Origin: an uncultured Gammaproteobacteria bacterium
GTDB lineage: Bacteria; Patescibacteriota; Patescibacteriia; UBA9934
Direction: 5' to 3'
Assembly (NCBI GenBank): GCA_964401485.1
Contig: CAYNYL010000006.1
Location: 4,208-68,207 of the forward strand
Length of the DNA: 64,000 bases
Below the pieces are notes generated by a model that ran no database searches, was not told the origin of the DNA, and worked only from the letters and a program-made list of their open reading frames with translations. Shown here piece after piece: positions 3,926 to 56,125 of this stretch; the stretch's first letter is position 1, and every line of letters begins with the position of its first letter. Position numbers and translations under genes: made by a program.

Positions 3926-5053
3926 ATGCAAACCCCTCTCTCCTATCTCGAAATCGACACGGAAGCCTTGCGGGCGAACGTAAGAGCACTTCGCTCGGAG
4001 CTTAAGGGCGGACAGAAGGTTGCCGGGGTGATAAAGGCAAATGCTTATGGGCACGGCGATACGCTCGTCGCAAAGGCGCTCGAAACGGAGGTCGATTATT
4101 TTCAAATTGACGATATCGAGGAGTGGCGCCGGATCCGACTGGTTACACAAAAACCGATTCTCCTTCTTGGCTACGTCCAAACAGAAGAAGCGCGCGAGCT
4201 TCTCGGAACCGAGACGGAACTCGCCGTGTTTTCAATGGAACAACTGCGCGAACTCGCTTCCCTGTCGCAAGATCAGCCCCTAAAGATCCACCTCACCTTT
4301 GACTGCCTCCTTGGACGCGAAGGTTTCCTTCCGATCGAAGCGGGGGACGTGATTTCATTCCTTAAAAGCGCGCCGTCACTCAAACTCTCCGGCGTCTACG
4401 CACACTTCGCGAACGTCGAAGACACAACCGATCAAACTCACGCGGTGAATCAAGTCACAACGCTGACCGAAATTGTTGAAGCATTCCTCGACGCAGGATT
4501 TTCACAGTTCGAGGTCCACCACTCTTCAACCGCCGGGTCCATGATTTTTGAGGATACGCGAGAGACGATTACGACACTCGCTCGCTTGGGCGTTGGGCTC
4601 TACGGATATTGGCCAGCGGATCATTTAAAAACCGCTTCGCATCTTACGAAGGTCTCTCTCACACCCGCGCTTCGATGGATAAGCCACGTCGCACAAGTAA
4701 AAACGATCCCTGCCGGACAATCGATCGGCTACGGTCGGACCCACGTCACGGACAAGGACACCGTGATCGCCCTTATCCCACAAGGCTACTCCGACGGATT
4801 CGATCGCGGTCTCTCCGGGAAGGGCCATGTGTTAATCGCGGGAGAAAAGCGTGCGGTTCTTGGTCGCGTGTCGATGAATATGCTCGTCGTCGACGTAACG
4901 GGAAGTAGCGTAGCGCGCGGCGATGAAGTGGTCCTTATCGGCCAACAAGGAAACGCATCGATCACAGCAACCGATATCGCAAACGAGATTAGCACAATCG
5001 ACTACGAAATCCTCGCGCGACTCTCGCCCCTCCTTCCTCGAATCGCAACATAA
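3926..5053 (+). CDS. alr: Alanine racemase
   Basis: N-terminal VAGVIKANAYGHGDTLVAKAL (PLP-binding Lys in AVVKANAYGHG-type motif), 375 aa, fold-type III PLP enzyme. Confidence 0.85.
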   Translation: MQTPLSYLEIDTEALRANVRALRSELKGGQKVAGVIKANAYGHGDTLVAKALETEVDYFQIDDIEEWRRIRLVTQKPILLLGYVQTEEARELLGTETELAVFSMEQLRELASLSQDQPLKIHLTFDCLLGREGFLPIEAGDVISFLKSAPSLKLSGVYAHFANVEDTTDQTHAVNQVTTLTEIVEAFLDAGFSQFEVHHSSTAGSMIFEDTRETITTLARLGVGLYGYWPADHLKTASHLTKVSLTPALRWISHVAQVKTIPAGQSIGYGRTHVTDKDTVIALIPQGYSDGFDRGLSGKGHVLIAGEKRAVLGRVSMNMLVVDVTGSSVARGDEVVLIGQQGNASITATDIANEISTIDYEILARLSPLLPRIAT

Positions 5054-5159
5054 TCCCCAGGGTGATCGTTGACCGAAGCGCCTACATATGTTTCAATGAA
5101 TTCATCCCGGATGGCTTTACACGAGCTCCTAGGGTGACGCAAAAATATCCCCAATAGCG

Positions 5160-5173
5160 CGAACATTTGTTCA
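5160..5173 (+). promoter_or_regulatory. Cheo-type SOS box (GAAC-N4-GTTC) upstream of the lexA-MTase fusion gene, embedded in the palindrome ATCCCCAA...TTGGGGAT (5148-5186)
   Basis: Sequence cgCGAACATTTGTTCAga is a perfect match to the Gram-positive LexA operator consensus CGAACRNRYGTTYG. It lies ~105 bp upstream of the ATG at 5277. Confidence 0.55.
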
Positions 5174-5276
5174 GACTGTTGGGGATTTTTTGTTGCCCCT
5201 AGCGTCAACTTTAGTTTTCCACAGGCTCATTCGTGACATGCTTCCTTTTTCGTATTTTTTCGTATATTGTTTGAAT

Positions 5277-6836
5277 ATGAGCAAAAATCGCAAGCATCAA
5301 ATCCTCGAATATATAAAAACCCATATAAAATCGAATGGCGGGTCTCCGACCCTTTACGAGATAAAAAACGGCGTTGGCTTAAAGTCTGTGTCAACGGTAC
5401 ACAAACACATCAAAGACTTGATCAGTGAGGATCTTTTACGAGATGACGGCTTGAATGGATACATCATAACCGCGCACTCAAGCAACACATCTAGTCGCGT
5501 TTCAGTTATTGGAACTATTACCGCAGGTGCCCCTATCGAAGCCATTGAAGACAACGACGATATCGTATGGGTTTCCGATCTACCGGCAAACAGCGATTTT
5601 TATGCATTGCGCGTAGCTGGCGACAGCATGATCGACGAAGGAATCTTCGATGGTGATTTAGTCATAATTAAAAAGCAAACCTCTGCAGAAAATGGCCAAA
5701 CCGTAGTAGCAATTATTGATAATAACCAAGCAACGTTAAAAAAAATATATAAAGAAAAGGGGGTCTTCCGCCTTCAGCCAGCCAATCAGAAAATGTTACC
5801 TCTTTTTAAAACCGAAGTTGAGGTACGCGGCATCGTCTGGTCTGTGATTCGTAATTTTAACAGACAGAAAGTTAATCAATCAAAAATCATACCTACAAAA
5901 GAGTGGCGCACTGTTGATTTATTTGCGGGCGTTGGGGGCATTCGTCTAGGTTTTGAAAAGGTTGGTTTTAGCACTGTATTCGCAAACGATTTCGAAGCCA
6001 AGTGTGCGGAAACATACAATACAAACTTTAAAACAACAAAATTAACAATCGAAGACATCACAAAAATTTCAACCAGTGATATTCCAGACTGCGACTTTGT
6101 TCTCGGTGGCTTTCCGTGCCAAGCATTCTCGATTGCGGGCTATCGTCACGGCTTCGAAGACCTGAAAGGTCGCGGAAATTTATTCTTCGATATAGCCCGA
6201 ATCATACAAGATAAACAACCCACCGGTTTTTTACTCGAAAACGTTAAAAACCTTAAATCTCACGACAATGGGAAAACTTTCAAAATTATAGAACAGACGC
6301 TTAGGGACCTGGGTTATTTTGTAAAAACTAAAATCCTGAACTCAATGGAATACGGTAACGTTCCACAGAACAGAGAACGCATTTATATAGTTGGCTTCAA
6401 GGATCAAAAAAGAGCCTCGCGATTTGAATTCCCAGAACCGATTCCACTCACAAAAACGATCAAGGATGTTTTAGAGGAAAATGTGGATGGGAAATACTAC
6501 TACAACGGCAAACCGCTATATGAACGATTAAAGAACGACGTAAGCGAAGAAAATTCCGTTTACCAATGGAGAAGGCAATACGTACGAAAGAATAAAAAAG
6601 GCGTCTGCCCAACGCTAACCGCAAATATGGGGACCGGTGGACACAATGTACCGATAATCTTTGACGGGCAAGGAATAAGGAAGCTCACGCCACGAGAATG
6701 TTTTAGGATACAAGGCTTCCCTGACAACTACAAATTACCCAAACTCGCCGATAGTGCGCTATATAAACAGGCTGGAAACTCAGTTTCCGTACCAGTCTTA
6801 ACAAGAATAGCCGAGCAAATAATGAAAGTATTATAA
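5277..6836 (+). CDS. LexA repressor (winged-HTH plus S24 peptidase domain) fused in-frame to a DNA (cytosine-5)-methyltransferase. The ORF opens at 5190, but the likely start is MSKNRKHQ at 5277.
   Basis: Residues 1-~200 align along their full length with LexA: ITAGAP (Ala-Gly cleavage site), RVAGDSMIDEGIFDGDLVIIKK (catalytic Ser and Lys), and C-terminal VRGIVWSVIRNF versus E. coli GLAVGVIRNG. Residues ~215-520 carry C5-MTase motifs: DLFAGVGGIRLGF (motif I), GGFPCQAFSIAG (motif IV, catalytic Cys), ENVKNL (VI) and QNRERIYIVGF (VIII). Confidence 0.85.
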   Translation: MSKNRKHQILEYIKTHIKSNGGSPTLYEIKNGVGLKSVSTVHKHIKDLISEDLLRDDGLNGYIITAHSSNTSSRVSVIGTITAGAPIEAIEDNDDIVWVSDLPANSDFYALRVAGDSMIDEGIFDGDLVIIKKQTSAENGQTVVAIIDNNQATLKKIYKEKGVFRLQPANQKMLPLFKTEVEVRGIVWSVIRNFNRQKVNQSKIIPTKEWRTVDLFAGVGGIRLGFEKVGFSTVFANDFEAKCAETYNTNFKTTKLTIEDITKISTSDIPDCDFVLGGFPCQAFSIAGYRHGFEDLKGRGNLFFDIARIIQDKQPTGFLLENVKNLKSHDNGKTFKIIEQTLRDLGYFVKTKILNSMEYGNVPQNRERIYIVGFKDQKRASRFEFPEPIPLTKTIKDVLEENVDGKYYYNGKPLYERLKNDVSEENSVYQWRRQYVRKNKKGVCPTLTANMGTGGHNVPIIFDGQGIRKLTPRECFRIQGFPDNYKLPKLADSALYKQAGNSVSVPVLTRIAEQIMKVL

Positions 6837-6840
6837 ACAA

Positions 6841-7926
6841 TTACTCTATACATCGCCTGATATCTGCGAGCATAATCTCTTCTTTACTTGGTATCATATC
6901 AACGATAGATTTGTGGGCGAAATATTCGTCGAAATCTTTTGACGATCTATCGAGTATTCCGAACTTTATAATATATGCTTTATCAGCCTGCAAGACTATA
7001 TCATTCAGCATCGCTTCGCCCGTGGTAATGATGGTTACGGAGCTCTTGCTATTCTTTATGAAACGTATATTTTGGATGCCGTCAACGTAGATATCCAGCA
7101 TCTTGTGGCTCGCTATAGCGTCCAAAACATTACCATTCCACCGATACAGCCCGTCCCCTTTCGGTGAAATTATATCGGAAAATGGTGTAATTGTTGAAAT
7201 AATTTTTGGGGACCTGGTTTCGCGTATGCGCTCTACATACACCGGGCTCTCCTTTGCAAAACACAGCGTGGAAAAAGACATAAAATCGTTTGCCATGCAA
7301 ACCGTGATAGGCTTAAGAGATCCCAAATTTGTGTTTTGACGATCAATTCGTGCAACCGAAGAGACGTCGCTATTGTCGTTCGATTTTATAAAGACTTCAT
7401 CGTTCATTTTTAAACCCTCATAAACGCTATCGTCGGTTACCGTCTGCTCAAAAAATGGCAAAAGATAGTCGCAATTAAGATTTGTTTCTACCAAGACCAA
7501 ATATTTATGATCGTAGCCCTGATTACGCAAACTTACCATGTATTGAGCTTTCTTGAATGTTTTTACTTCAATTTGTGGTGAGCCCTCGAGGGCGCGCCAT
7601 TCGTTCACGTACTCTACGAATGGTTTTAACTCTGTTCCAACTTTAATTCCAAGAACATCAGGAGCTATACCGGATTCCTTCGGTTTATACTTATAATAAT
7701 CAGAAATTACAGATAAATTGTCCGCTATCTTTGGCAAGAAATATTTATTAAAAATAACACTTTCGGGAATAATGTTGATCCAGCGATCAAAAATACCGCC
7801 TATGTAATCGCTCTTGCCACTCAACCCTCCATACATTCTTCCTCGTTGCGCCAATGAGCAAACAAAGTAGATATACGGTATAACGTCCTCTTTATTGATT
7901 ACTATTTCTTGATTGATTCTCTGCAT
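6841..7926 (-). CDS. Hypothetical protein, candidate Type II restriction endonuclease cognate to the adjacent C5-MTase
   Basis: Lies tail-to-tail with the MTase with a 4-bp gap and shares its low GC. A possible PD-(D/E)xK-like arrangement is present (APDVLGIKVG...SPQIEVKTFKK). No other recognisable family signature. Confidence 0.4.
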   Translation of the reverse strand: MQRINQEIVINKEDVIPYIYFVCSLAQRGRMYGGLSGKSDYIGGIFDRWINIIPESVIFNKYFLPKIADNLSVISDYYKYKPKESGIAPDVLGIKVGTELKPFVEYVNEWRALEGSPQIEVKTFKKAQYMVSLRNQGYDHKYLVLVETNLNCDYLLPFFEQTVTDDSVYEGLKMNDEVFIKSNDNSDVSSVARIDRQNTNLGSLKPITVCMANDFMSFSTLCFAKESPVYVERIRETRSPKIISTITPFSDIISPKGDGLYRWNGNVLDAIASHKMLDIYVDGIQNIRFIKNSKSSVTIITTGEAMLNDIVLQADKAYIIKFGILDRSSKDFDEYFAHKSIVDMIPSKEEIMLADIRRCIE

Positions 7927-7931
7927 ATCAT

Positions 7932-9551
7932 TTACTTCTTAGCCGCTTTTAAAAAGCCGAGGAACAACGGGTGTGGGGACAATGGACGCGACTGGAATTC
8001 GGGATGAAACTGTACGCCAACAAAGAACGGGTGATCTTTCACTTCAACGATTTCAACGAGACGATTGTCGGGCGACGTTCCCGCGATAACAAGACCCGCG
8101 GATTCGAGCACCTCTCTGTAATCATTATTAAACTCGAAACGGTGGCGGTGGCGTTCGCTAATCGAATCGGTTCCGTAAGCCTTTCGCGAAGCCGTCCCTT
8201 TCTTAAGTACGCACGGATACGAACCGAGACGAAGCGTTCCGCCGATCCCGCCCTCCTCAAGTTTTTCTTCTTGATCATCCATTAAATGGATCACCGGCGC
8301 CTTTGTTTTCGGTTTAATTTCGGTTGTTTGCGCGTCCTTAAGCCCGCACACATTTCGCGCGAATTCGATTACGGCGCACTGCATTCCGTAACACAGCCCG
8401 AGATACGGAATTTTATGCTCGCGGACATAATTAATCACCGCAATCTTTCCCTCGATCCCTCGCGACCCAAACCCGCCCGGAATAAGAATCCCGTCGAAGG
8501 TCTTAAGCTCCGCGAGTTTCTCGGGATGTTTTTCATATTCCTCGGCGTTTAGCCATTCAATCTTTGGCATTTGCCCAGTCGCCCATGACGCATGCTTAAT
8601 TGCCTCAAGAACCGAAAGGTACGCGTCGGTCAAGATAAAATCGCCGGTTGAGAAGTACTTTCCAACAACACCGATATGCACCTCTTTCTTCACCGTCGTA
8701 ATCGTCCTCACGAGTTTTTCAAACGCGCGAAGGTCTGCCGGCTTTGATTTCATTTTATATGAGCGCAAAACGGTTTCCGCAAACTTCTGTCGTTCAAAAT
8801 TAAGCGGAACTTCGTAAATAGAACGCGCATTCGGCGCTGTAATAATATGATCCTTCGGCACCCCGCAAAACCGCCCAAGCTTTTCACGTCTCGGTTCGTC
8901 AAGCTCCGCCTCCGAGCGACAAATAATAAAGTCCGGCACAATTCCGACACGATTAATTTCGCGCACGGCGTGTTGCGTCGGCTTTGTTTTCATTTCTCCA
9001 ATCGACGGCGGAACCGGAAGGTAACTTACAAGAATCGTCTTTACCGCGTCCGGATCCTTCATCTTCATCATCCGTAGAGCCTCAAGAAACAGAATATTTT
9101 CATATTCCCCAACCGTTCCCCCGATCTCGATTAACACAAAATCCGCCTTCGCCTTATCCGCGGCGTGTTCAATCCGCGCGATCACTTCTTCCGGTACACG
9201 CGGAACAACCTCGACGCATTTACCGTGATAATCCCCCCGGCGCTCGCGCTCGATCACACTTTGATACACGCGCCCGGTCGTCATGTAATTATCCCGCGTA
9301 ATATCAATATCGAGGAACCGTTCGTAGTTCCCAATATCTTGATCAGTCTCGTCACCGTCAACCGTTACAAACACTTCTCCGTGTTCAACCGGGTTCATCG
9401 TCCCGGCGTCCACGTTCACATACGGATCTATTTTTATCGCAGTAACTTTGTAACCCCGAGCCTTAAGGGTAAGTCCGAGCGCAGCGCTTGACGTCCCCTT
9501 TCCAACTCCCGACATGACTCCTCCTACGATAAATAGATACCGATGTTTCAT
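7932..9551 (-). CDS. pyrG: CTP synthase. Likely start MKHRYLFIVGG at 9551; the ORF extends to 9569.
   Basis: N-terminal GGVMSGVGKG P-loop-like motif and C-terminal class-I glutamine amidotransferase domain (GFGSRGIEGK...LGLCYGMQ...HPEF). Confidence 0.95.
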   Translation of the reverse strand: MKHRYLFIVGGVMSGVGKGTSSAALGLTLKARGYKVTAIKIDPYVNVDAGTMNPVEHGEVFVTVDGDETDQDIGNYERFLDIDITRDNYMTTGRVYQSVIERERRGDYHGKCVEVVPRVPEEVIARIEHAADKAKADFVLIEIGGTVGEYENILFLEALRMMKMKDPDAVKTILVSYLPVPPSIGEMKTKPTQHAVREINRVGIVPDFIICRSEAELDEPRREKLGRFCGVPKDHIITAPNARSIYEVPLNFERQKFAETVLRSYKMKSKPADLRAFEKLVRTITTVKKEVHIGVVGKYFSTGDFILTDAYLSVLEAIKHASWATGQMPKIEWLNAEEYEKHPEKLAELKTFDGILIPGGFGSRGIEGKIAVINYVREHKIPYLGLCYGMQCAVIEFARNVCGLKDAQTTEIKPKTKAPVIHLMDDQEEKLEEGGIGGTLRLGSYPCVLKKGTASRKAYGTDSISERHRHRFEFNNDYREVLESAGLVIAGTSPDNRLVEIVEVKDHPFFVGVQFHPEFQSRPLSPHPLFLGFLKAAKK

Positions 9552-14519: not shown

Positions 14520-14721
14520 AATATAGGGTTACTAGAAATAGAATAAGACAAGGGAGGCAAAGAACGTAAAGAGGCATTACGAACGAAACGAAGCCCGGCC
14601 GAATCGCCTCAAGCGCAACAAAGAACGGGATCGAGAGAAAAGAGATGAGAAAAGCAAAACGTAGCATATTAGAGTCCGAATGGAAGGCGGTCGCGAAGCG
14701 CCTTAAGGAGCGCGCGTCCAC
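14506..14721 (-). CDS. Possible small membrane protein (53-71 aa)
   Basis: ORF with two hydrophobic helices in the HIT-to-14669 gene gap. No homology recognised; it may be non-coding. Confidence 0.25.
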   Translation of the reverse strand: MDARSLRRFATAFHSDSNMLRFAFLISFLSIPFFVALEAIRPGFVSFVMPLYVLCLPCLILFLVTLYYDKS

Positions 14722-16075
14722 GCAGTGGTGGCTTCGTAAAGGTCACTTCAATTTCTTGGACGCGAAAACTCTTGCCTTCGCGAGATACGGATGGCGACGA
14801 AAGTGCGAACGTAATGACGCCATTTGCATCAACGTATGGAGCGATCGCAAACGTCTGTTCGCCAATCACTCCGCCCTCGACTCGCTCCACCGATTGGTAA
14901 CTCGTAAGAATCGCGTCGACTTCGCGCGCCTCAAGATCGGCAAGTCCGCCGAGCCTCGTCCCTTCTGGATTGAAGAACTGATCCCGTGTAAATGCAATGA
15001 CGCCATCAACCGTTAGTCGCGCATCCCCCTTTGGAATCGTTACCGGAAGAACCCCCGTCTCGGTCGTCGAGAAATACACTTGCTCGCGCGGAGCGGAAAG
15101 CTCAAACGACTGATCTCCAACGCGAATCGTTTGCACCCCTTCAACGTGAAGTGTCTCCGCCGTTAGATCTTTTCCATTCGTAAACACGGTCTCACCATAC
15201 ACGTCGTCACTCCACCCAACCTGATCCCCAAACGATATCGCTTGAAGAAACACCCACTTTGTAAGCGTTGTGGTCCATTCTCGTAAGAAGAGATCGCTCG
15301 TCGTTGTCCATTCGATACGATACGGACCCTCCGGAAGATCCTCAATCCGAAGCGGGACCGCGATCCGTGAAAACGCTTGATCCTTCGAACGATTCCCATC
15401 ATCCGCCGTCACCCCTTCGTACACAACTTCGTCACGCTCATTGTAGACGCGAAACGTTAACGGATCCTCGCCGGTCGTACGATTCACATCCGTGAACGTA
15501 AACGTAACATCAAGCGGTTCATTTTTCACGTAAACGGCAACACGGTGTGAACCACGAAGTGACGTCTTTGTTGTACGCAATTCTCCGCTAGCTCGATATC
15601 CGGCAAGACGCAAAGGGACCGGGTTCTCGGCATGATAAAACGCGACTTCGGAGGCCGAGGAAATCGGGTCTCCGTCACGGGTAAAATACCGAAGTCCGTT
15701 CGCATAGACCTCCCTTGGCCAAGAAAGCTCCTCAAGGAGACGGTGATATAGCGGTCGCAAATCAAAAGCACGCGAAAACGGGTCGGCAAGCGGACCGATC
15801 TCAACGAGATCCGTTGTCATAGGGTCAAGCGCCACACGGACCGTCACAGTTTCATACTCCGAGCTCGGTGGCCGAACAGTGAAGTAAACCGGCTCACCAA
15901 TAACCTCAAATCCATTAAGCCGCTCTGTCGGCGAAAGGGCACTAACAAACGGAGATTGCTCACCCTCTTTAATTGAGGCAACCCGTTCACCGTCAATTTG
16001 AAGGTCAACCAAAAATAGTGCGACGAAGAGCGTCAACGGAATAGAAAGGATCGCTATTCGATAGCCAATCGTCAT
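14669..16075 (-). CDS. Hypothetical membrane-anchored extracytoplasmic protein (468 aa), co-operonic with the GT-C-like gene
   Basis: Single N-terminal TM (IAILSIPLTLFVALFLV) followed by a large soluble domain. Its start overlaps the upstream gene stop by 4 nt. Confidence 0.5.
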   Translation of the reverse strand: MTIGYRIAILSIPLTLFVALFLVDLQIDGERVASIKEGEQSPFVSALSPTERLNGFEVIGEPVYFTVRPPSSEYETVTVRVALDPMTTDLVEIGPLADPFSRAFDLRPLYHRLLEELSWPREVYANGLRYFTRDGDPISSASEVAFYHAENPVPLRLAGYRASGELRTTKTSLRGSHRVAVYVKNEPLDVTFTFTDVNRTTGEDPLTFRVYNERDEVVYEGVTADDGNRSKDQAFSRIAVPLRIEDLPEGPYRIEWTTTSDLFLREWTTTLTKWVFLQAISFGDQVGWSDDVYGETVFTNGKDLTAETLHVEGVQTIRVGDQSFELSAPREQVYFSTTETGVLPVTIPKGDARLTVDGVIAFTRDQFFNPEGTRLGGLADLEAREVDAILTSYQSVERVEGGVIGEQTFAIAPYVDANGVITFALSSPSVSREGKSFRVQEIEVTFTKPPLRGRALLKALRDRLPFGL

Positions 16076-17640
16076 AGTGAAGAAATACGATAAAGCGTTT
16101 CAGAACCAAACGATTCGATCGGCGAAATTGTAAGTCCAACGGGTCCAAGCCGCACCGTTTGAAGATACATAAGATCACGTTCGGGAAGCGTTACACCAAA
16201 ATAATACACTGGTCCAAGCCCCGCCATTTTTGGAAGCATGTAGTAGGTACGCTCACTACGAAGCGGGTGCACAACCCCTCGATCCGGATACAAATACTTG
16301 TCCGCATAGTCGGTAATGATCAATGCATTCTCCTCGGTAAGCGCAAGGATTTGCTCTTTATACTCGGCATTTTGAAGAAGAACCTCCCGCGTTTTAAGGA
16401 GCCCGTCATGCGACAAAAGAACGAGCCCTAGGTTCGCAAGAAGGAATGGCACAAGAAGAAGTCCAAGAATGAAGTCACGACGCTTCGAAATGACAAAGAA
16501 GGCGTGAGCAATAAAGGGAGTAGTAAGGACAAAGATCGGCAAAAAGTAGCGGATGTAGGAATTTCCAAGCGTAATAACCGAACGATCTGGATTATCGTAA
16601 AACACCCAACTCGCATAGACAAGAACTAGGTAGCCGGAAATCAACGCCGTAAGAAGAAGATAGGGTCTCGCGGGCTTCGGAAGCGCGATGATCCCGATAA
16701 ATACAAAAACCGCAATCCATGGGAATAGGACGACGAGATAGTTCGTCGCGTTACGTAGAATCGCACGTTCATGGATCCCAAACGGAAAGAGTACACCGAG
16801 AATTCCTGGATAGTCATCCTGTTTTACCGTTGGAAGAAACTCTGCCGATTCTTGAATCACAACCGCCGGCGTTTCATGCGCCTGGTAGCCCGTTTTAACG
16901 AGAGACCCGTACAGCTCTGCGTTCAGTCCAAGAAACGGCAGGCTCGCAAACAATCCGCCAAGAACAAAGACAAGAACCTGCGCACGAGACGCGAACGCCT
17001 TGAGAACCGCGTACAGCAAGAGCGCGAAAACGACAGGCGCAACCCAAACCACTTCATTCATCCGGAACGCCACAGCGAAGGCAAGAGCGACCCCCGCAAG
17101 CCCCATCTGCCAAACACTCTTTCGTCGCATCGCCTCAACCGCAAGAAAAAGAGCAAACAAAAGGAATGAGACAAAGGGAACATTGTGCATCAGTGCACGC
17201 CCCGAATAAAAGAGGAAGGCGGGATGGAGAAAAAGCAGGGCGCCCGAAAGGAGGGCAAACCGCTCATCATTTGTCGCGTAATACACAAGCCGTGCAAAAA
17301 CTAGAACAGCGAGCGCTCCAAACACCATCGTCAAATAAGGGATCACAAAGACCCCAACCGAAGCACCGATCGATCCGTAAAGCACAGGTAGTCCAATAAA
17401 ACTTTTTGGGACAACACGGCCCTCGAGGACAAGCGTACTTCGCGGACGTACAATTCCGTCAAGTTCTCCATTTCTCGCATCAGTAACCCCAATCTCCCCC
17501 TCCCTCGCAAACTGCTCAGCAAAGAGACGGTTCGCCGATTCATCGGGCGAATTTGAAACCCCAACCCCAACGACGAGGAGCGAAGAAATGACAAGATAGC
17601 AAAGTCCTGCCAGAATAAAGGTTGTCCAGTAAAATCGCAT
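16072..17640 (-). CDS. Polytopic membrane glycosyltransferase, GT-C fold (ArnT/PMT-like, polyprenyl-phosphate-sugar dependent)
   Basis: 522 aa with about 12 TM helices, an early extracytoplasmic loop carrying SPDESANR (DE-type motif), and adjacency to GT2 DPM1-like and GtrA-like genes. Confidence 0.55.
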   Translation of the reverse strand: MRFYWTTFILAGLCYLVISSLLVVGVGVSNSPDESANRLFAEQFAREGEIGVTDARNGELDGIVRPRSTLVLEGRVVPKSFIGLPVLYGSIGASVGVFVIPYLTMVFGALAVLVFARLVYYATNDERFALLSGALLFLHPAFLFYSGRALMHNVPFVSFLLFALFLAVEAMRRKSVWQMGLAGVALAFAVAFRMNEVVWVAPVVFALLLYAVLKAFASRAQVLVFVLGGLFASLPFLGLNAELYGSLVKTGYQAHETPAVVIQESAEFLPTVKQDDYPGILGVLFPFGIHERAILRNATNYLVVLFPWIAVFVFIGIIALPKPARPYLLLTALISGYLVLVYASWVFYDNPDRSVITLGNSYIRYFLPIFVLTTPFIAHAFFVISKRRDFILGLLLVPFLLANLGLVLLSHDGLLKTREVLLQNAEYKEQILALTEENALIITDYADKYLYPDRGVVHPLRSERTYYMLPKMAGLGPVYYFGVTLPERDLMYLQTVRLGPVGLTISPIESFGSETLYRISSL

Positions 17641-17643
17641 CTT

Positions 17644-19707
17644 TTGTCATGTTATACTAAAAAACGGTATTTTTCTATGCGCCTCCTCTCCCCCCTCTCT
17701 ACGACCCCATTTCTCCTCATTTTTGGGGTAGGAACGCTCCTAAACGGCCTTTTTTTGCGGTCCCCTGGGCTTGGGCTCATTTTTCTTATCGTTCTTGGTC
17801 TCGGAGCAGCAAAACGGCTCGGAAACCCCTTCGAGGGCGGGCTCATTCTTCTAAGTAGCATTATGCTCTTTTTTACGGGAGCATTCTACCTCGTCGACAT
17901 CCCCCGCCTTTTCTTTGCAGGAGCATTCCTCTTCTTCCTTTTTGGACTCATGCTTTTGCGACGCACAAGCGTCAAACGCGAATCGGAACGCGCCCCTCTT
18001 CTCTTTTATCCGCTCTGCCTCGCAACTGCCGTCCTCACCGCCCTCTTTTTCAATGCGGTCGCCCCTTTCGCAACGGAGCTTGCAACTCGCTCCCCTTGGC
18101 TCCTTCTCCCGCCATCAATCCTTCTTTATCCATTTTTCATCGGGATCCTTGCAACCATTACCGCCTTTGTCGCGGACGTGCGTCGAGGTGCGCTCCCGCT
18201 AATCCTTATTTCGGCGATCGGAACACTCCTCGCCTTCACCCTTTTCCCTCTCGGATACGGTTTTGACCCTTTCATTCACGAAGCAACGATTCGCCACATC
18301 CTTACCTTCGGAACGATTGATCCAAAACCGCTCTACTATATCGGACAGTACGCGCTCGAGCTTTTCCTTGTTCATCTTTTTGCGCTCGACCTTACGCTTC
18401 TCAACCAACTTCTCCTTCCGGTTCTCGCAATCCTCACCCTCCCGTTCGCGCTAAGCGCGGGGCTTCGCGGGGCTGGTGTAAAACAGGGGTTCGCTCTCCT
18501 TAGCCTCGTCGCCCTTCCATTCGGCGCGTTTATCATGACAACTCCGCAGGGGCTCGGCTATCTCTTTAGCGCCGTGATTTTATTTCTCACCCTTCCCGCT
18601 CTCGTCCGAGAACCACTCCCCGTACGACACGTAACGATCGCCCTCCTCGCGCTTGCGACACTCGCGATCCACCCGCTCGCCGGAATCCCAATCATTCTCT
18701 ATCTCGCACTCCTCTATACACGCACACGCATTCCACGCCTAAGCGCACTGATCGTTGTCGCTACTCCCCTTGCCCTTCCGCTCGTCTTCACTCTGCAAAG
18801 CGCTCTTTCGGGTAACGCAATCTCCATCCATTTGGACCGCATTCTCCCGTCGATTGCGTCCCTTCCTTTTGGATTTTTGACAACCCACTACGATCCGATT
18901 CTTGACCTACTCTATTTCTTTGGAGCGAATATTCTTCCGCTCCTGCTCCTCGTATCGCTTAGCCTTCTTTACACACTCCGCTCACACAAGGACCGCTCCC
19001 TTCTTCGAACCCCACTCCTCTTTGCTTTTCTTCTTTTCCTTTCCTCCCTCCTCCTTCGCGCCCTGTCGTTTGACTACCTCGCCGAACATGAACGTAACGA
19101 CTTTGCGGAGCGACTTTACGTCTTAATGACTCTGTTCCTTCTTCCGTCGCTCGCCGTTCTCTTTGATTCGATCCGCACCCGAATTCGCGGCCCTCTCCAT
19201 CTCACCGTCTTTACGCTCTTTGTTGCCACGCTGTTCACCGGAAACCTTTACCAAAGCTACCCTCGTCACGACGGGTATGCCCGCTCCGGTGGCTTTACGA
19301 TTTCGGCCTACGACCTCCTAACTGTGAGTGCGATTGAAGAAGATGCAAATGGCGCCCCCTACCTTGTCCTCGCAAACCAAGCCGTTTCCGCTGTAGCGCT
19401 TCGCGAATTTGGATTTAACAACCGCTACTACAACAACTCTTTCTTCTACCCGATTCCAACGGGAGGAAAACTCTACGAGCGCTACCTTGCAATGAATGAA
19501 TCTCCAACAAAAGAGAACGCAAAAAGCGCGATGGATCTTCTTTCGATCGACCGCGCCTACTTTGTCGTGAATGACTACTGGTGGGACAAGGAGCGTATTG
19601 TTGAGCAAGCAAAACTCGAATCAGATAGCTGGTTCGCAATCGGTGACGAACACCTATTTGTGTTTCTCTTTACGCGCGAGGAGGATTCGCTCGAATCGGT
19701 CCGTTAA
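17644..19707 (+). CDS. Large polytopic membrane protein (687 aa), putative second GT-C family glycosyltransferase or oligosaccharyltransferase-like
   Basis: More than 12 N-terminal TM helices plus a ~200-aa C-terminal soluble domain. It diverges from the 16072-17640 gene with a 3-bp gap, and its 3' end overlaps the convergent GT4 gene by 54 bp. Confidence 0.5.
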   Translation: MSCYTKKRYFSMRLLSPLSTTPFLLIFGVGTLLNGLFLRSPGLGLIFLIVLGLGAAKRLGNPFEGGLILLSSIMLFFTGAFYLVDIPRLFFAGAFLFFLFGLMLLRRTSVKRESERAPLLFYPLCLATAVLTALFFNAVAPFATELATRSPWLLLPPSILLYPFFIGILATITAFVADVRRGALPLILISAIGTLLAFTLFPLGYGFDPFIHEATIRHILTFGTIDPKPLYYIGQYALELFLVHLFALDLTLLNQLLLPVLAILTLPFALSAGLRGAGVKQGFALLSLVALPFGAFIMTTPQGLGYLFSAVILFLTLPALVREPLPVRHVTIALLALATLAIHPLAGIPIILYLALLYTRTRIPRLSALIVVATPLALPLVFTLQSALSGNAISIHLDRILPSIASLPFGFLTTHYDPILDLLYFFGANILPLLLLVSLSLLYTLRSHKDRSLLRTPLLFAFLLFLSSLLLRALSFDYLAEHERNDFAERLYVLMTLFLLPSLAVLFDSIRTRIRGPLHLTVFTLFVATLFTGNLYQSYPRHDGYARSGGFTISAYDLLTVSAIEEDANGAPYLVLANQAVSAVALREFGFNNRYYNNSFFYPIPTGGKLYERYLAMNESPTKENAKSAMDLLSIDRAYFVVNDYWWDKERIVEQAKLESDSWFAIGDEHLFVFLFTREEDSLESVR

Positions 19708-28920: not shown

Positions 28921-29001
28921 AGGTTCACTCATAGAATTATGCGTTAATGATACTCTTAAGGCGCTATAAAATCGAGGCCACTTGTGGAAAACATCAAACA
29001 A

Positions 29002-29030
29002 AAACCCCGCGTTTCCGCGGGGTTTTTGCG
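29002..29030 (-). terminator. Rho-independent terminator downstream of the giant surface-protein gene
   Basis: ccccgcg-tttc-cgcgggg hairpin flanked by an A-run and a T-run (also bidirectional). Confidence 0.7.
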
Positions 29031-29063
29031 CTCATGCGCTAGGCGATGAACTTGAGGCGTTCA

Positions 29064-32000
29064 TTAGAAGATGAACGAACCTCCGGTGACTGGAAGACCT
29101 TCTACGAGGTAAGCGCCCCAGTACGAATCATCGTCCGTGCTGTCGGCCCATACACTCGCCTCTCCATCATCTTGCCAGAGCAAGCTTCCTGGAATGCGGT
29201 ACATATCGTCGTCTGTATTGCTCAACGATGCGTACGCTACTGGCGTTGTACCAGCGTATCCACGAATTACCGTCAACGTGTTGCTCGAAATTCCGATAAC
29301 GAGCATGCGTTCACTTGACGAAGGCGAAGCTCCACCGTCTGCATCGGTTTCATCGTAAGCGATGATATCACCAACAGAGTAGGCAGATCCACTGTCAACA
29401 GCGATCGTTGTATCCGTGATAGCGATCGCGGATTCATTCGTCGAGTTAGCAATTTCGATCATTGAGCTTACGATATAGTCTCCAGGGATCGAAACCTGCA
29501 AGATATCATCTTGCGTGGTCGAAGCTCCTACTGCGTTCATGTAGAGCACGTAGGTTGCCGTCGTTCCCTTCGGTACAACGATTTGATCCGTGGCACCGAG
29601 GGTCAATGTTACGAATCCAGCGTCAGCCGCCGTTGTCGTACAATCTGCACCCGTCGTTGCTTGAAGTTCCCAATCGCTGTCTGAACCCTCGATTGGATCT
29701 GAGAGGTTCGAGCTCTTGTAGAGCGTGAAGTCCGTTGTATCAAGTACGGTACCAACAGCTGCGTCGGTGTCGCATTGATTCCAGTTGCTTCCAGCATTGT
29801 CAGACGTCGAGAGTTTGAAAACCAACTCTTGAAGAACAACGTCCTCGTTTGCTGCTGCCGCTACGTTGAATCGAAGCGCTTCCATTACTGCAGGAACAGC
29901 ATTTCCCGATGGGGTTGAAGCTGAAACTGAGAATGTTGGAGCCGTTTCCTTAACCGTGAAACGTGCAGCCGTCGAAACAGCTGTTCCGCTGTCATCGTTA
30001 AGTGATTCACCAGATGAAGCTCCGATAGCCTTGAAGTTGTCATCGCCCGATGTGTCCATGAAAAGACCCATTGAGACGTACTCGTTCGAGGTTGCAGATC
30101 CTCCAGCTGTTCGGTCGGTTACTGGTACGTTTACCAATACCTTTACCTTTGCAGCGTTTTCAATCGTTACTGGGATTGAAAGACCTGTGAACTTCGCTTC
30201 GTATCCGCTTGTGAATCCACCCGTTACCGGCACTGTTGCGCCGGCAGCATTGGTGTACTCAAGGGTTACCAAGTTGATGTTGTTCGTGTAGGTCGAAGCA
30301 TCTGTTCCGGTAAGCATTCCAGCCGCTTCTTCAGAAACCGTCAACGTTTGAAGAGTGAAGTCTTCTTTCGCTGCCGTGAATCGGAATGTTGAAACGTGGT
30401 TGCTTGACATTCCCGTCAAGAGGAAGTCTGGCGTTGGGGTTGATGAATCAATTCCCATTGCAAGAGTTCCAACAGAGTCAACGGTAAGAACCTTTGAGAC
30501 AGATGCAGGGGTTGTTGCACCTCCGATGTCTGCTCCGGTTGGGGTAACCGTTGTTCCGTCCTCATCTTGTGCGGTCATGTCTGAATCCGCATCAAGCGTG
30601 AATCCGAAGTATCCAGAGTTCGTGGTTGATGGGTTTGCAAGGTTACACTTGAGATCAAGTTGTACGCTCGCTCCCGCTGCCACCTTCCAGCTGAATCCAT
30701 CGTACACGAGGTTTGCACCTGAGTTCGAAGGAGAGACTGGTCCATCGATCAATGTATCACCAACGTAGATCGAGCATGAGCTGATGTAGTCAGTAACCGT
30801 AACATCCCAGTCAGCATCAGCATCACTACTGTCGTCATCCACAGAGTTTCCTGCCGTGAACGTTCCAGAAGAGGCATCGTTTGAGTAAACGTCGATCGTA
30901 AGATCTGAAACCGTAACCTGACCAGCCTCTGAAGCAACAACGTTGTACGAGTTAACGAGAACGTTGCTTGAGTTTTGCACCGTTACTGGGTTCACTGGCG
31001 TTGAAGCGAGAGAAACCGTAAGTGATGCTGACTTCGCTGTTTGCGCTTGTCCCGTGATATCGCTCGAAGGAACGATATTTGAGGTTGAAAGCGCATCTCC
31101 TCGTCCGTCTTGTACGGTAAGTCCAGAGATATCTACCGCTGCTCCGAATTCTGTTCCGGATGTAACATCGTTGTCGATGTCCGCAAGTACTTGAAGTGTC
31201 ATCGTTTCTCCGGCCGCCATTTCAAAGTCATCCGTGAAATCGATGATTTGCGCAGCGTCTTCGGCGTCAAGAGTATCTCCGGTGATATCCGCTTCGTTTG
31301 TGTCATCATCCGTCGTCACATCAAGCTCAAGAGGTCCCATAACAACCGTTCCGGTTGCCTTGTCGACAATCTTGATGTCTGTAATGTTCGCCGTATCCGA
31401 AGCACCGATGAGTCCGGTGTTGTCTCCGGTGCCTCCACCGTCTTCATCTCCATCGAATGGATCATTATCGTCGTCGTCACCGAAAACGATAACGTCGAGG
31501 TCCTGGATCGTGAGACGTTGTGTCGCGCTTACCGTGAACTCAAGAAGAACTTGGTCTTGGCTGTTTGTTCGGATGTCCGAAGCGGTTGGACCCACAAAAG
31601 CGAGGTTCAAATCTCCGCCTTGGATTGTCGAGAACGAACAGTCGCTTGACGAACTAGCACAAGTGCCATTCGTCTCAGCTCCGCTCGAATCTCCTCCATC
31701 GTATCCACCTCGGTTGATCGTCATTCCGAAACCGTAGTCTCCACCAACGATAAGGAAGTCCGTATCGTTTTCTGTGTAAACTTCGACTGTGTCCGCAGCT
31801 TCTCCACCGATGTCAGCTGAAACTTTCAAGGTCTTTCCTTGTCCTTCCGTGATGGAAAGTGGGGATGCGAGCTTGAATGAAACGAGCTTGTCTCCGATGT
31901 AGGTTCCTGTGGCAAGAAGGGTCGTATCATTCCAGAGCTTGTAGTCTGTGTGATCCGCACCATTGTCAACCTTCAAGGTGACTTCTTGTACCGAAGCGTC

Positions 32001-33299
32001 TTCGGATGATGGGGTGAGTCGGAATTGTCCGATAACCGCATCATTTTGTCCGATCGTTGGGTTCGTCATTGTACCGTTTTTCGCGATAGTGACTGATCCA
32101 ACCGTAACGGTTCCGATTGTGTGGGTGTTTCCAGAAACTGGGAACGATCCACCAACCGATCCTCCGTTCGCGTCAACATCTGATGCTGAAGCGAGCGAGA
32201 ATTGTACTTGAGCTCCAACCGTTGAGCCCGAAGCAACCTCTGCACGAAGCGTAAGCGTTCGTGTTTCATTTGCCGCAAGGTCAAGGTCAAGGCTTCCGAA
32301 TGTTACCTTTCGTGTTGAAGCGTTTACTGAACGAGCTTCGGTCAATCGCATTTCTCCCTCGTAGAGGTAGACGTTTGAAAGATTTGAAGTTAATCCAAGC
32401 GCTCCCATGGTAAGTGTCAATTGATTGACTGTTGCCGCTTCTGAACCAGCCTTTACGTTGAAGCTGAAGAGCTTAACGCCGTTCGCCGACTTTGGAAGAG
32501 TCGAAGAAGCTGGGTTTGAAGATGCAGCCATAACCGTTACTGCTCCGGTTGAGGATGTTTCGTCGCAACCTGTTTGTGAGGCGTCAACGAGTCCGCAATC
32601 ACGTGCTGTAATATCTGAACCGGATGCAAGAGCTGAATCATCGATGTTCGCTCCATCAAGGAACCAACCATCGTTCATGTAGTTTGCAGTTCGGCCAGCG
32701 CTTGAAACCATGCGCTTTTCACCATCCCATGAGAGATAGTAGCTTCCTCCGTCCATGTACATCGCACCATCGAACGCCGTAGCGGTCATGAGCGAAGCAC
32801 CGACTGAGTAATCTTCGAAGAAGACGTCTGGAACATCGTCAATGTTTGTGTTCCAGTTGCTTCCCGCGAAATCTGTTGCAACGGTTTCTGTTTCAATCCA
32901 GTGGATGTTTCCATCGGTTGAAACAGCATAGGTCTTAGGAGCCGATTGGATTTTGATCCATCGTGATCCTGGGCGATAAACGACGTTTCCTCCGAGCGGG
33001 ATAGCCGCGAGAGATGAGTCGGAAATCGTTTGTACTCCGCTGAAGGTTGTTCTCCAGGTCTTGTACGTTTTTTCATTTGGGAAGATGTAGCGCTCGCCGT
33101 CGTATCCGTAGAAGTAGACGGTTGAAAGCGATGTTCCGCGGATCAAGTCTCCTGCCGCTGCAGCGCTCGCGTCTTGAGGCAAGCTCAATCCGGCAAGGCC
33201 GAGAGAAAGGATCGTTGCTCCAGCGACGATCGCTGTAAGAACGCGCTTCCCAACTGATGTTAGGGAGTTATCCATAAGTTTATAGTGTCCTTTTTTCAA
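29064..33299 (-). CDS. Giant (1411 aa) secreted surface protein: Thr/Ser/Gly/Asp-rich with Ig-like/DUF11-like repeats and an N-terminal copy of the ~130-aa shared domain
   Basis: Signal peptide with an Ala-rich cleavage region. N-terminal STVYFYGYDGERYIF...WIKIQSAPKTYAVS... aligns with the C-terminal domains of the two downstream proteins. Low-complexity beta-rich composition typical of adhesins and S-layer-associated proteins. Confidence 0.7.
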   Translation of the reverse strand: MKKGHYKLMDNSLTSVGKRVLTAIVAGATILSLGLAGLSLPQDASAAAAGDLIRGTSLSTVYFYGYDGERYIFPNEKTYKTWRTTFSGVQTISDSSLAAIPLGGNVVYRPGSRWIKIQSAPKTYAVSTDGNIHWIETETVATDFAGSNWNTNIDDVPDVFFEDYSVGASLMTATAFDGAMYMDGGSYYLSWDGEKRMVSSAGRTANYMNDGWFLDGANIDDSALASGSDITARDCGLVDASQTGCDETSSTGAVTVMAASSNPASSTLPKSANGVKLFSFNVKAGSEAATVNQLTLTMGALGLTSNLSNVYLYEGEMRLTEARSVNASTRKVTFGSLDLDLAANETRTLTLRAEVASGSTVGAQVQFSLASASDVDANGGSVGGSFPVSGNTHTIGTVTVGSVTIAKNGTMTNPTIGQNDAVIGQFRLTPSSEDASVQEVTLKVDNGADHTDYKLWNDTTLLATGTYIGDKLVSFKLASPLSITEGQGKTLKVSADIGGEAADTVEVYTENDTDFLIVGGDYGFGMTINRGGYDGGDSSGAETNGTCASSSSDCSFSTIQGGDLNLAFVGPTASDIRTNSQDQVLLEFTVSATQRLTIQDLDVIVFGDDDDNDPFDGDEDGGGTGDNTGLIGASDTANITDIKIVDKATGTVVMGPLELDVTTDDDTNEADITGDTLDAEDAAQIIDFTDDFEMAAGETMTLQVLADIDNDVTSGTEFGAAVDISGLTVQDGRGDALSTSNIVPSSDITGQAQTAKSASLTVSLASTPVNPVTVQNSSNVLVNSYNVVASEAGQVTVSDLTIDVYSNDASSGTFTAGNSVDDDSSDADADWDVTVTDYISSCSIYVGDTLIDGPVSPSNSGANLVYDGFSWKVAAGASVQLDLKCNLANPSTTNSGYFGFTLDADSDMTAQDEDGTTVTPTGADIGGATTPASVSKVLTVDSVGTLAMGIDSSTPTPDFLLTGMSSNHVSTFRFTAAKEDFTLQTLTVSEEAAGMLTGTDASTYTNNINLVTLEYTNAAGATVPVTGGFTSGYEAKFTGLSIPVTIENAAKVKVLVNVPVTDRTAGGSATSNEYVSMGLFMDTSGDDNFKAIGASSGESLNDDSGTAVSTAARFTVKETAPTFSVSASTPSGNAVPAVMEALRFNVAAAANEDVVLQELVFKLSTSDNAGSNWNQCDTDAAVGTVLDTTDFTLYKSSNLSDPIEGSDSDWELQATTGADCTTTAADAGFVTLTLGATDQIVVPKGTTATYVLYMNAVGASTTQDDILQVSIPGDYIVSSMIEIANSTNESAIAITDTTIAVDSGSAYSVGDIIAYDETDADGGASPSSSERMLVIGISSNTLTVIRGYAGTTPVAYASLSNTDDDMYRIPGSLLWQDDGEASVWADSTDDDSYWGAYLVEGLPVTGGSFIF

Positions 33300-36602: not shown

Positions 36603-37434
36603 GAAGCGACGCCATCTCGATTTGATCAACAATCGCCGTCGCCCGTTTCTCCCATGTTGAGCGGATTTCGACTTCAACGCGTGCCTCGTGACCAAGAATC
36701 ATCCATTCTTCAATCGTCGTCGGTTCATCTTTTGGTGCGAGGCTTCCCGTGTACACCGTTCCATAACTCATCGTCTCCTCGCGCATGTCGCTCGTCGTCA
36801 CAACGCCGAGTGCGCCGCTAAAGAGCGCGTAAAGGGTGCTTGCGTCACGTGCCTCGGGAACATGGATCGTTCCTTTCATGTGAAGCGCCTCCCCGCCAAA
36901 AATCGCAACTGGGTAACGGCCAAGAAATCGTCGAACCGCTTGCTTCACTTCCTGTTGTTCAAGGGAGCGAGCGTCAATAAGCATGTACCCCTTTGCATCA
37001 AGTCCATAAACCGAAAGAAGTGTCGGACTAATGATTCCCCGCTTTTTCTCAATCCCATCAACAATTTGCACAACAGTTGTCGCAAAAACCGCGCTGATCG
37101 ATTTGGCCGGGGTACGTTCCGCGATAACGATCGTTGTGCGTGGAGCGAGAACGCGTGCAAACGCAACGTCAATAACAGCGGGCGAAACGAAGAAAATGTG
37201 GGTTGGGCGAGTCCAAAGAAGCTCAACAATCAACCCAAACTGACGCAAACCAGGAAGCTTAGAAAACGTTCCGATATCGACAAAGTCGCGTCGTGATTCA
37301 TTCATTTTTTGAAAGAATAGAGCCCGAACCGTGTGCTTCTTTGCCCCAAAAATCGAACCAATGCCGAAAATCCAAGCAATTTCGCTTGTTTTTTGTTTCG
37401 GAGAGTCGATGATCATTAAACGCATAAGGGGCAA
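36574..37434 (-). CDS. Hypothetical protein (286 aa)
   Basis: ORF with protein-like composition, convergent to and overlapping the 35415-36602 gene by 29 nt. No family recognised. Confidence 0.35.
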   Translation of the reverse strand: MPLMRLMIIDSPKQKTSEIAWIFGIGSIFGAKKHTVRALFFQKMNESRRDFVDIGTFSKLPGLRQFGLIVELLWTRPTHIFFVSPAVIDVAFARVLAPRTTIVIAERTPAKSISAVFATTVVQIVDGIEKKRGIISPTLLSVYGLDAKGYMLIDARSLEQQEVKQAVRRFLGRYPVAIFGGEALHMKGTIHVPEARDASTLYALFSGALGVVTTSDMREETMSYGTVYTGSLAPKDEPTTIEEWMILGHEARVEVEIRSTWEKRATAIVDQIEMASLLKHGVLAHE

Positions 37435-37533
37435 TTCTAGCAGATTTAAGCCATTTTGTCAAAAAGAAATAGGGCCCGAAGCATTTCTGCTTCGAGCCCT
37501 CTTCACCCGCGTGTGTTCACGCGAGTGGACGAA

Positions 37534-43791: not shown

Positions 43792-43901
43792 TAGCCCCCC
43801 AATCATGTCCTTAACGGACAGGTAATCGTATCGGAAAACTGGGTTTTTGTAAAGAAAAAGCTGTTGACAGGGAAAAAGACCCGTGCTACTCTCTTTGCAT
43901 T

Positions 43902-44192
43902 ATGAAAGCGGACATCCACCCAACTTATCACGAAGCCGTAACGGCAACATGTGCCTGCGGAGCGACCTACGCAATCGGTTCGACCCACGATTCAATCTTT
44001 GTCGAACTTTGTAAGGCTTGCCACCCGTTCTACACAGGAAAGCAAAAGATTCTCGATACGGCGCGTCGCGTAGAGAAGTTCCAATCAAAGGCGACGAAGA
44101 AATCGACCGCCACTCTTGGACACAAAGCAAAACTCGAAAAGAGCGCTGCGCGTGCAAAGAAGCGTGAAGAAAAGAAAGCAAAAGGAGCGTAA
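43902..44192 (+). CDS. rpmE: 50S ribosomal protein L31
   Basis: [49 protein letters not shown] is the L31 zinc-ribbon signature. Confidence 0.9.
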
Positions 44193-44208
44193 CAACGCCC
44201 CCGATCAA

Positions 44209-44238
44209 GCAACACCCGAAAAACGGGTGTTGTTTTTA
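44209..44238 (+). terminator. Rho-independent terminator after rpmE
   Basis: caacacccg-aaaaa-cgggtgttg hairpin followed by TTTTT. Confidence 0.75.
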
Positions 44239-56091: not shown

Positions 56092-56097
56092 GGAAAA

Positions 56098-56125
56098 GCG
56101 CCCACACGGGCGTTTTTTCTTTTTT
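56098..56125 (+). terminator. Rho-independent terminator after rplA
   Basis: gcgccc-aca-cgggcg hairpin followed by TTTTTTCTTTTTT. Confidence 0.8.

Follow-up and report, generated by a model that had tools for sequence, protein, structure and literature searches.

The 223-nt intergenic region analysed here lies in a 64-kb window (the whole stretch of 64,000 nt from contig CAYNYL010000006.1, placed by GTDB in the Patescibacteriota), between alr, the gene for alanine racemase, and a gene that encodes a LexA-type repressor fused to a C5 DNA methyltransferase. The fusion gene is followed by a convergent open reading frame (ORF) of 361 aa and then by pyrG. Two kinds of repeated sequence stand between alr and the fusion gene (Table 1): a long interrupted hairpin, the tip of which is a palindrome resembling the SOS operator of Gram-positive bacteria (the Cheo box, CGAAC-N4-GTTCG), and, immediately before the fusion gene, a tandem direct repeat that overlaps a -10-like hexamer. 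An earlier note on this DNA had taken the palindrome for the LexA operator of the fusion gene. Comparison with related loci points instead to the direct repeat, 85 bases downstream, which is likely the LexA operator of this gene by prediction, and leaves the palindrome as part of what looks like a transcription terminator.

Table 1. Coordinates of the genes and sequence elements in and around the alr-fusion gene intergenic region (positions in the 64-kb window)
Feature	Position	Strand	Remarks
alr (alanine racemase)	3926-5053	+	Pfam Ala_racemase_N, Ala_racemase_C; stop TAA at 5051-5053
Long interrupted hairpin	5129-5202	.	From RNA folds and inverted repeats; read as a putative bidirectional intrinsic terminator
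Cheo-like palindrome CGAACATTTGTTCA	5160-5173	.	Exact pattern match; tip of the hairpin
GTTG-N10-CAAC	5192-5195 / 5206-5209	.	No support as a feature; 4-bp arms, unconserved in the alignment of relatives
TTTTCCACA, DnaA-box-like (consensus TTWTNCACA)	5215-5223	+	Followed after 23 nt by the direct repeat
Tandem direct repeat TTTTCGTAT-T-TTTTCGTAT	5247-5255 and 5257-5265	+	Period 10; proposed LexA operator
TATATT, -10-like hexamer	5263-5268	+	Shares bases with the second repeat unit; 8 nt separate it from the ATG at 5277
LexA-C5 DNA methyltransferase fusion gene, 519 aa	5277-6836	+	Pfam LexA_DNA_bind, Peptidase_S24, DNA_methylase
361-aa ORF, probable cognate restriction endonuclease	6841-7926	-	Assigned from gene context only; convergent to the fusion gene

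The fusion protein passes the NCBIfam model for the lexA equivalog (TIGR00498) with 148 bits against a cut-off of 111, and the dcm model was also matched. Its methyltransferase part is HhaI-like, the best match in the PDB being M.HhaI itself (2e-62). The LexA part holds what a LexA repressor requires: a winged helix-turn-helix (HTH), an S24 domain, an Ala-Gly cleavage site (Ala83-Gly84) and a Ser/Lys dyad (Ser117 and Lys155). Gly84, Ser117 and Lys155 are invariant in both family alignments, and Ala83 is invariant in one of them and conserved at 90% or more in the other. The protein is accordingly predicted to be capable of self-cleavage.

The control region was compared across about 90 LexA-gene upstream regions, 10 from GTDB genomes and 80 from metagenomes. 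A GTDB scan with the full-length alignment was dominated by generic C5 methyltransferases and yielded only 10 fusion loci; the metagenome rescan used the LexA part alone, and an exact look-up added six closer relatives (71-82% identical). The pattern TTC[GT]-N6-7-TTC[GT] was found in 81 of the 87 regions taken as 200 nt upstream, whereas shuffled sequences reached 6.4 on average and 16 at most. A leave-self-out position weight matrix (PWM) made from seven relatives assigned 34.3 bits to positions 5245-5268, compared with 14.9 bits for the next best site in the window. When the PWM was run over the 634 kb of fetched loci, it returned 88 matches at or above 16-18 bits, 83 of which lay within 220 nt upstream of a LexA gene; the remaining five include three strong ones, of which one stands before the second LexA-methyltransferase gene of locus L122 and two are in loci L117 and L118. 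Within the 64-kb window the exact repeat pattern has no match besides 5247-5265, even with up to three mismatches allowed, and the looser TTCG-N6-TTCG occurs there at chance level (9 copies vs 10.8 expected), its other copies being intragenic. The earlier note had recorded both a direct repeat and the TATATT hexamer beside it; both exist, but the repeat occupies 5247-5265 rather than 5242-5262.

In the clade to which the window belongs (the window together with L084, L085, L086, L090, L164, L166, L167 and L170-L172), the layout of this region is fixed in all 11 loci: GCT, 4 nt, TTTTCGTAT, one base, and TTTTCG(T/G)(A/T)T. One of the loci with this layout, L170, comes from CP075337.1, a record named Candidatus Saccharibacteria bacterium TM7i. 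The first TTC is at -28 from the ATG, as measured in eight of the clade loci, and the three further loci have the same layout. The cores TTTTC and TTCGT are invariant in the clade alignment, and conservation among the eight aligned clade members is confined to the stretch of the repeat and the -10 hexamer, with none over the hairpin. All 11 loci have TATAAT, TATATT or TATACT 6-8 nt before the ATG and no Shine-Dalgarno sequence. From this conservation only, we infer a promoter with TATATT as its -10 element; and because the -10 ends 6-8 nt before the ATG, without a Shine-Dalgarno sequence, the mRNA of the fusion gene is probably leaderless. An imperfect inverted repeat (80% complementary), with the arms ATTTTTTCGTATATT (5254-5268) and AATATGAGCAAAAAT (5274-5288), takes in the second repeat unit, the -10 and the start codon. 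Its right arm, AATATGAGCAAAAAT, encodes the conserved MSKN start of the protein; the pair might be a degenerate third half-site, or it might be due to chance.

The repeat accompanies LexA in three gene architectures, namely the C5 methyltransferase fusion (~515 aa), an N4/N6 methyltransferase fusion (~621 aa, assigned with NCBIfam) and LexA as a stand-alone protein (196-199 aa). Its placement varies: 14 loci have it inverted, just 3' of the -10, and its period, which is 10 in the clade of the window, is 11 in most other loci. Because the repeat follows the LexA domain, in either orientation and on either side of the -10, we read it as an operator rather than as a core promoter element. A period of about one helical turn, together with occurrence at lexA promoters across the phylum and specificity to them, is what a direct-repeat LexA operator should have, and both were found here.

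A second recurring element lies farther upstream. The consensus TTWTNCACA is present in 47 of the 90 LexA-gene upstream regions (shuffle mean 2.6), and TTATCCACA or its complement in 40 of them (shuffle mean 0.14). Its orientation varies, and the repeat usually follows at a distance of 21-25 nt. The box of the window recurs in L164 at an identical distance from the repeat, though the 23-nt spacer between the two differs, and the similarity between the upstream regions of L164 and the window starts at TTTTCCACA (5215). As a match to the DnaA-box consensus at a recurring position, TTTTCCACA is a predicted DnaA box.

The hairpin lies ~80 nt 3' of the alr stop codon, before the fusion gene and its convergent partner. 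It comprises an A-run (5141-5145), a main stem (5147-5158 / 5174-5186), an apical stem of GAAC (5161-5164) and GTTC (5169-5172) around the tetraloop ATTT (5165-5168), and a T-run, TTTTTT (5186-5191), with an outer pairing of AGGG with CCCU. A repeat search returned arms at 5142-5165 and 5168-5191 (24 nt, 79% complementary) and an outer pair at 5129-5146 and 5185-5202. The extended inverted repeat described in the earlier note is therefore real, but its left outer arm, ATCCCCAA, is at 5147-5154, one base earlier than had been given, and 24 nt separate it from the right arm, TTGGGGAT, at 5179-5186. As plus-strand RNA, 5130-5200 folds with -32.7 kcal/mol, compared with a shuffle mean of -15.0 (z -6.0; none of 200 shuffles was as good), and the minus strand folds with -29.7 kcal/mol (z -5.7). 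The hairpin is retained in both the minimum free energy and the centroid fold of the whole intergenic region. On the minus strand, too, a T-rich tail (TATTTTT, with five consecutive T) comes after the stem. Since each strand thus reads as a stem and then a T-run, the structure has the look of a bidirectional terminator.

A scan of the window for hairpins with T-runs ranked 5131-5200 among the strongest on both strands. The same scan found classical sites of this kind elsewhere, at 28968-29059 (bidirectional), 37461-37520, 44178-44237, 56065-56125 and 1965-2026. A stable, G+C-containing stem-loop, a U-run 3' of the stem and a site after a stop codon are the marks of a rho-independent terminator, and the simplest reading of 5129-5202 is a putative bidirectional intrinsic terminator 3' of alr. 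It shares with known bidirectional rho-independent terminators the stable stem-loop, the flanking A-run and T-run and the position after a stop codon, as do the comparable sites elsewhere in the window; it differs from them in a stem that is longer than usual and broken by internal loops, and termination here is a prediction. A search of 4900-5400 against Rfam gave nothing beyond a chance-level microRNA match (E 0.87). The inverted repeat GTTG-N10-CAAC of the earlier note is present, but arms of 4 bp are trivial and they are not kept in relatives. Other short repeats of the region, labelled D1-D3, I4 and I5, were rejected as features, being at chance level by their length. Within the hairpin, a GCGC tetranucleotide (5157-5160) directly adjoins the Cheo-like motif; GCGC is the sequence recognised by M.HhaI, to which the methyltransferase part is closest among solved structures.

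How the hairpin and the repeat are to be understood can be weighed against three other explanations. The palindrome has the exact core claimed for it: a pattern search places GAAC-N4-GTTC (GAACATTTGTTC, that is, GAAC-ATTT-GTTC) at 5161-5172, and with its 5' C, its AT-rich spacer and its intergenic position upstream of a lexA-type gene it could pass for a functional operator, through which the LexA domain of the fusion protein, or a host LexA of Gram-positive-type specificity, would contribute SOS control. In the window, however, the motif occurs at chance level, with four copies vs 1.9 expected and four or more in 13 of 100 shuffles, and the remaining three copies (10666, 13455 and 44870) lie inside an S41 peptidase gene, a sugar dehydratase gene and prfA. 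It was not found in any of the other 86 upstream regions of 200 nt, the window copy being the sole one among 87, nor within 260-300 nt upstream in the six closer relatives, and the hairpin that carries it is outside the DNA common to the window and the closest copy of the cassette, L164. The centre of the palindrome is ~97 bp 5' of the conserved -10 and 110 bp 5' of the ATG, with the 3' arm of the hairpin and the T-run between; at that distance, and with the T-run intervening, it cannot occlude the promoter. The family half-site, (T/G)TTCG, does resemble the GTTCG half of a Cheo box, but the operator of this family is a direct repeat and not a palindrome, and the best direct-repeat PWM score inside the hairpin, to which a half of the palindrome gives rise, is a weak 9.2 bits, which several random sites of the window exceed. 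Finally, the apex of such a hairpin is a 4-N4-4 palindrome by geometry, and this fully accounts for the Cheo-like appearance. We therefore give a functional operator at 5160-5173 next to no credence, and judge the palindrome to be a bystander with a chance resemblance to an SOS box. The headline claim of the earlier note, a Cheo box, is a false positive: the site matches the Cheo core exactly, but it is off-promoter, unconserved and unenriched in the window, it sits within a terminator-like hairpin, and the LexA family next to it goes with a direct repeat. As for a host SOS regulon under a separate LexA of shared specificity, the ORFs of the window that were scanned include no second lexA and no recA, uvrA, dinB or other classical SOS gene.

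The hairpin might instead be a relic of cassette integration, such as a junction, a recombination site or a small repeat element between alr and the cassette, and neither a terminator nor an operator. The genes that follow it do form a low-G+C insertion (~40% vs ~50%) between alr and pyrG, a syntenic locus (L169) holds just 103 bp at this place that are unlike the hairpin, and the short repeats D2 and I5 flank the region. These repeats, however, are by our estimate of a length that chance would produce; the hairpin has no second copy at the other end of the cassette or in the cassette copies L164 and L166; and an A-run, a stem and a T-run on both strands are the anatomy of a terminator between convergent transcription units. 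An integration relic is, on this balance, unlikely. The remaining explanation concerns the direct repeat, which could belong to the core promoter or be bound by a regulator distinct from LexA, for example DnaA or a factor specific to the Candidate Phyla Radiation (CPR), in which case there would be no LexA autoregulation at this gene. That the repeat fills the spacer and overlaps the -10, that no -35 hexamer can be recognised, that a DnaA-box-like motif co-occurs and that binding of LexA to the repeat is itself a prediction would all agree with this. On the other hand, a core promoter element would hardly be found in either orientation and both upstream and downstream of the -10 across loci, the repeat is nearly confined to LexA-gene upstream regions in 634 kb, it follows the LexA domain through three gene architectures, and a direct-repeat LexA motif has been reported for the phylum, according to a citation in PMC7739468. 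A role for the repeat apart from LexA thus appears very unlikely.

We hold with good confidence that the intergenic region combines a terminator (5129-5202) with a separate control region (5215-5276) that contains a direct-repeat LexA operator. If so, transcription of alr would end at the hairpin, and the fusion gene would have its own promoter, with TATATT as the -10 and transcripts that begin at about 5275-5277. The fusion protein, dimerized via the S24 domains, would bind the direct repeat with its LexA domain and block RNA polymerase, which amounts to negative autoregulation; RecA-stimulated self-cleavage at Ala83-Gly84 would then remove the DNA-binding domain and de-repress the gene. The analysis establishes the sequence itself, the predicted fold, how conserved and how specific the repeat is, the domains of the protein and the conservation of its cleavage-site and catalytic residues. 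Termination at the hairpin, binding of LexA to the repeat, the positions of the promoter and the start, and self-cleavage are all steps that we infer. Judged by sequence comparison, the fusion gene is probably autoregulated through the direct repeat. Autoregulation by the gene's own LexA moiety had also been proposed in the earlier note; it is plausible by way of the direct repeat conserved throughout the family, but not by way of the Cheo-like palindrome.

Several observations weigh against this interpretation. There is no canonical -35 hexamer 5' of the repeat, and no sigma-70 promoter was called; a combined scan of 4800-5600 for terminators and sigma-70 promoters called nothing, the hairpin having been missed because the scan permits only loops of 3-8 nt and uninterrupted stems. 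As a terminator, the hairpin is atypical (~16 bp, interrupted, with internal loops), the syntenic empty site in L169 lacks a comparably strong hairpin (z -1.4), and no sequence relative of the hairpin was found on which covariation could be assessed. In addition, phylogenetic dependence among the related loci means that the counts given above overstate the number of independent observations.

The fusion gene and its convergent partner occupy an interval (~5200-7930) with ~40% G+C, compared with ~50% around it and ~51% in the genome. In the syntenic locus L169, where alr is 66% identical, the gene order is MFS, alr and then, convergent to these, pyrG, L9, NUDIX and S41. The alr-pyrG spacer of L169 (3248-3350) is unrelated to the hairpin and folds no better than shuffles, and the final codons of pyrG differ between the window and L169. 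Because L169 has only 103 bp between alr and pyrG, we regard the two genes of the window as an inserted cassette. The cassette recurs in unrelated neighbourhoods, and its closest copy, in L164 (82% identical protein), lies directly 3' of a tRNA gene (region ~4870-4945 of L164). This tRNA gene, which includes GGTTCGAATCC, has its CCA end ~14 nt before the DnaA-box-like motif, a position compatible with mobility by way of tRNA-associated integration.

The 361-aa ORF has no match in Pfam, NCBIfam or the sequences of the PDB; its AlphaFold model is poor (pLDDT 62), and Foldseek found nothing with it in the PDB. Homologues of it follow the fusion gene, in convergent orientation, in L164, L166, L011 and L111, and they adjoin unfused C5 methyltransferases in L072, L080 and L081, which are Clostridia and Tenericutes loci. 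On the minus strand, its ATG (7926) comes 5 nt after the pyrG stop (7932), so this ORF may be read through from pyrG; it has no direct repeat of this kind. A family-type repeat of period 11, TGTTTTCGGTTTAATTTCGGTTGTT, is present inside pyrG (8304-8328, plus strand), ~380 nt upstream of the start of this ORF, and scores 17.2 bits. It is probably background, because an unrelated intragenic site in the window (37348-37372) scores alike.

Similar pairs were found in the related loci. Nearly all the partners downstream of 63 fusion genes are convergent ORFs of 180-390 aa, from many families: MvaI/BcnI nucleases in 22 loci, Bsp6I in 8 and NgoFVII-like in 4, in addition to the 361-aa family and several families without a Pfam match. 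Since these convergent partners include nuclease families, the loci are type II restriction-modification cassettes with LexA on the methyltransferase. LexA is mostly fused in them, either to a C5 methyltransferase (~501-528 aa) or to an N4/N6 methyltransferase (~621 aa; 508 aa in L122), and LexA genes that look stand-alone were seen in 3 of the 80 metagenome loci. In L122, two different LexA-methyltransferase fusion genes (3974-5866 and 7059-8585) lie 1.2 kb apart on one contig, each with its own direct repeat upstream; an MvaI/BcnI-family-like ORF and a small HTH ORF separate them. In L117 and L118, which are nearly identical, the repeat (L117 2440-2464, 26.5 bits; L118 1842-1866, 23.6 bits) is found ~25 nt upstream of a 382-aa minus-strand ORF, the neighbours of which are a vsr-like gene and the LexA-methyltransferase gene. 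LexA may therefore control a second gene, possibly for a nuclease, in some cassettes.

Methyltransferases of the SsoII/EcoRII/MspI type autoregulate through an N-terminal HTH, and C-protein controllers are comparable. The fusion described here resembles these systems in having an N-terminal DNA-binding domain on a C5 methyltransferase, a putative operator over its own promoter and a two-gene cassette of methyltransferase and restriction enzyme. It differs in that the N-terminal module is a complete LexA, in which the winged HTH and the S24 domain are joined with an intact Ala-Gly site and Ser/Lys dyad. With a complete cleavable LexA, RecA-stimulated cleavage could relieve repression, a possibility absent from the SsoII/EcoRII/MspI-type and C-protein systems. 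Searches for a LexA-methyltransferase fusion in the literature library covered here returned nothing relevant.

Among LexA motifs, the nearest in description is that of the Patescibacteria: the work of Sanchez-Osuna, Barbe and Erill (2017, Environ Microbiol 19:3465) is cited in PMC7739468 among cases of LexA proteins that have evolved to recognize a direct repeat. That motif agrees with ours in phylum, in direct-repeat architecture (the point for which PMC7739468 cites it) and in lying upstream of lexA, a likeness by description and not by letters. The LexA of the window belongs to the same equivalog, and one difference is that it is fused to a restriction-modification methyltransferase. The alphaproteobacterial SOS box, quoted as GTTC-N7-GTTC in PMC8565304, is likewise a direct repeat of a TTC-containing tetranucleotide, with 11 from start to start, and some members of our family even have GTTCGG-N5-GTTCGG (L142 and L160, for example). 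However, it belongs to another phylum, the core here is TTTC(G/T) and not GTTC, and the period in the clade of the window is 10.

The Cheo reading would have endowed the LexA of the Patescibacteria with a Gram-positive-type SOS motif, and would have led any regulon prediction based on it astray. Once corrected, the reading supplies an operator model for the clade, TTTTCGTAT-N-TTTTCGTAT overlapping the -10. This operator tracks the LexA domain over three architectures, and it places what is predicted to be a self-cleaving SOS repressor within a methyltransferase of a mobile cassette. A much broader proposal, which we put forward tentatively and with more doubt than conviction, is that in the Patescibacteria a complete, cleavable LexA is routinely fused to type II methyltransferases, of at least two unrelated classes and accompanied by at least three recognizable nuclease families and by unannotated ones, with an operator that makes their expression autoregulated, damage-inducible and possibly tied to replication. 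If this were true, such cassettes would have a built-in "restriction alleviation" switch, and the operator in the window would be one instance of a general design for SOS-controlled restriction-modification. The direct-repeat LexA motif itself is already known for the phylum; what may be new is the wider pattern, with LexA in restriction-modification methyltransferases across the phylum and often with a DnaA box.

No relative in the protein collection exceeds 66% identity to the alr of the host, and for this reason we consider the host to be from a poorly sampled lineage. Elsewhere in the window, the intervals 29064-33299, 37456-40950 and 14669-19707 contain large ORFs (1411, 1164, 687, 522 and 468 aa) without a match in Pfam, and 41182-43806 encodes a protein with nine MopE-type metal-binding repeats.

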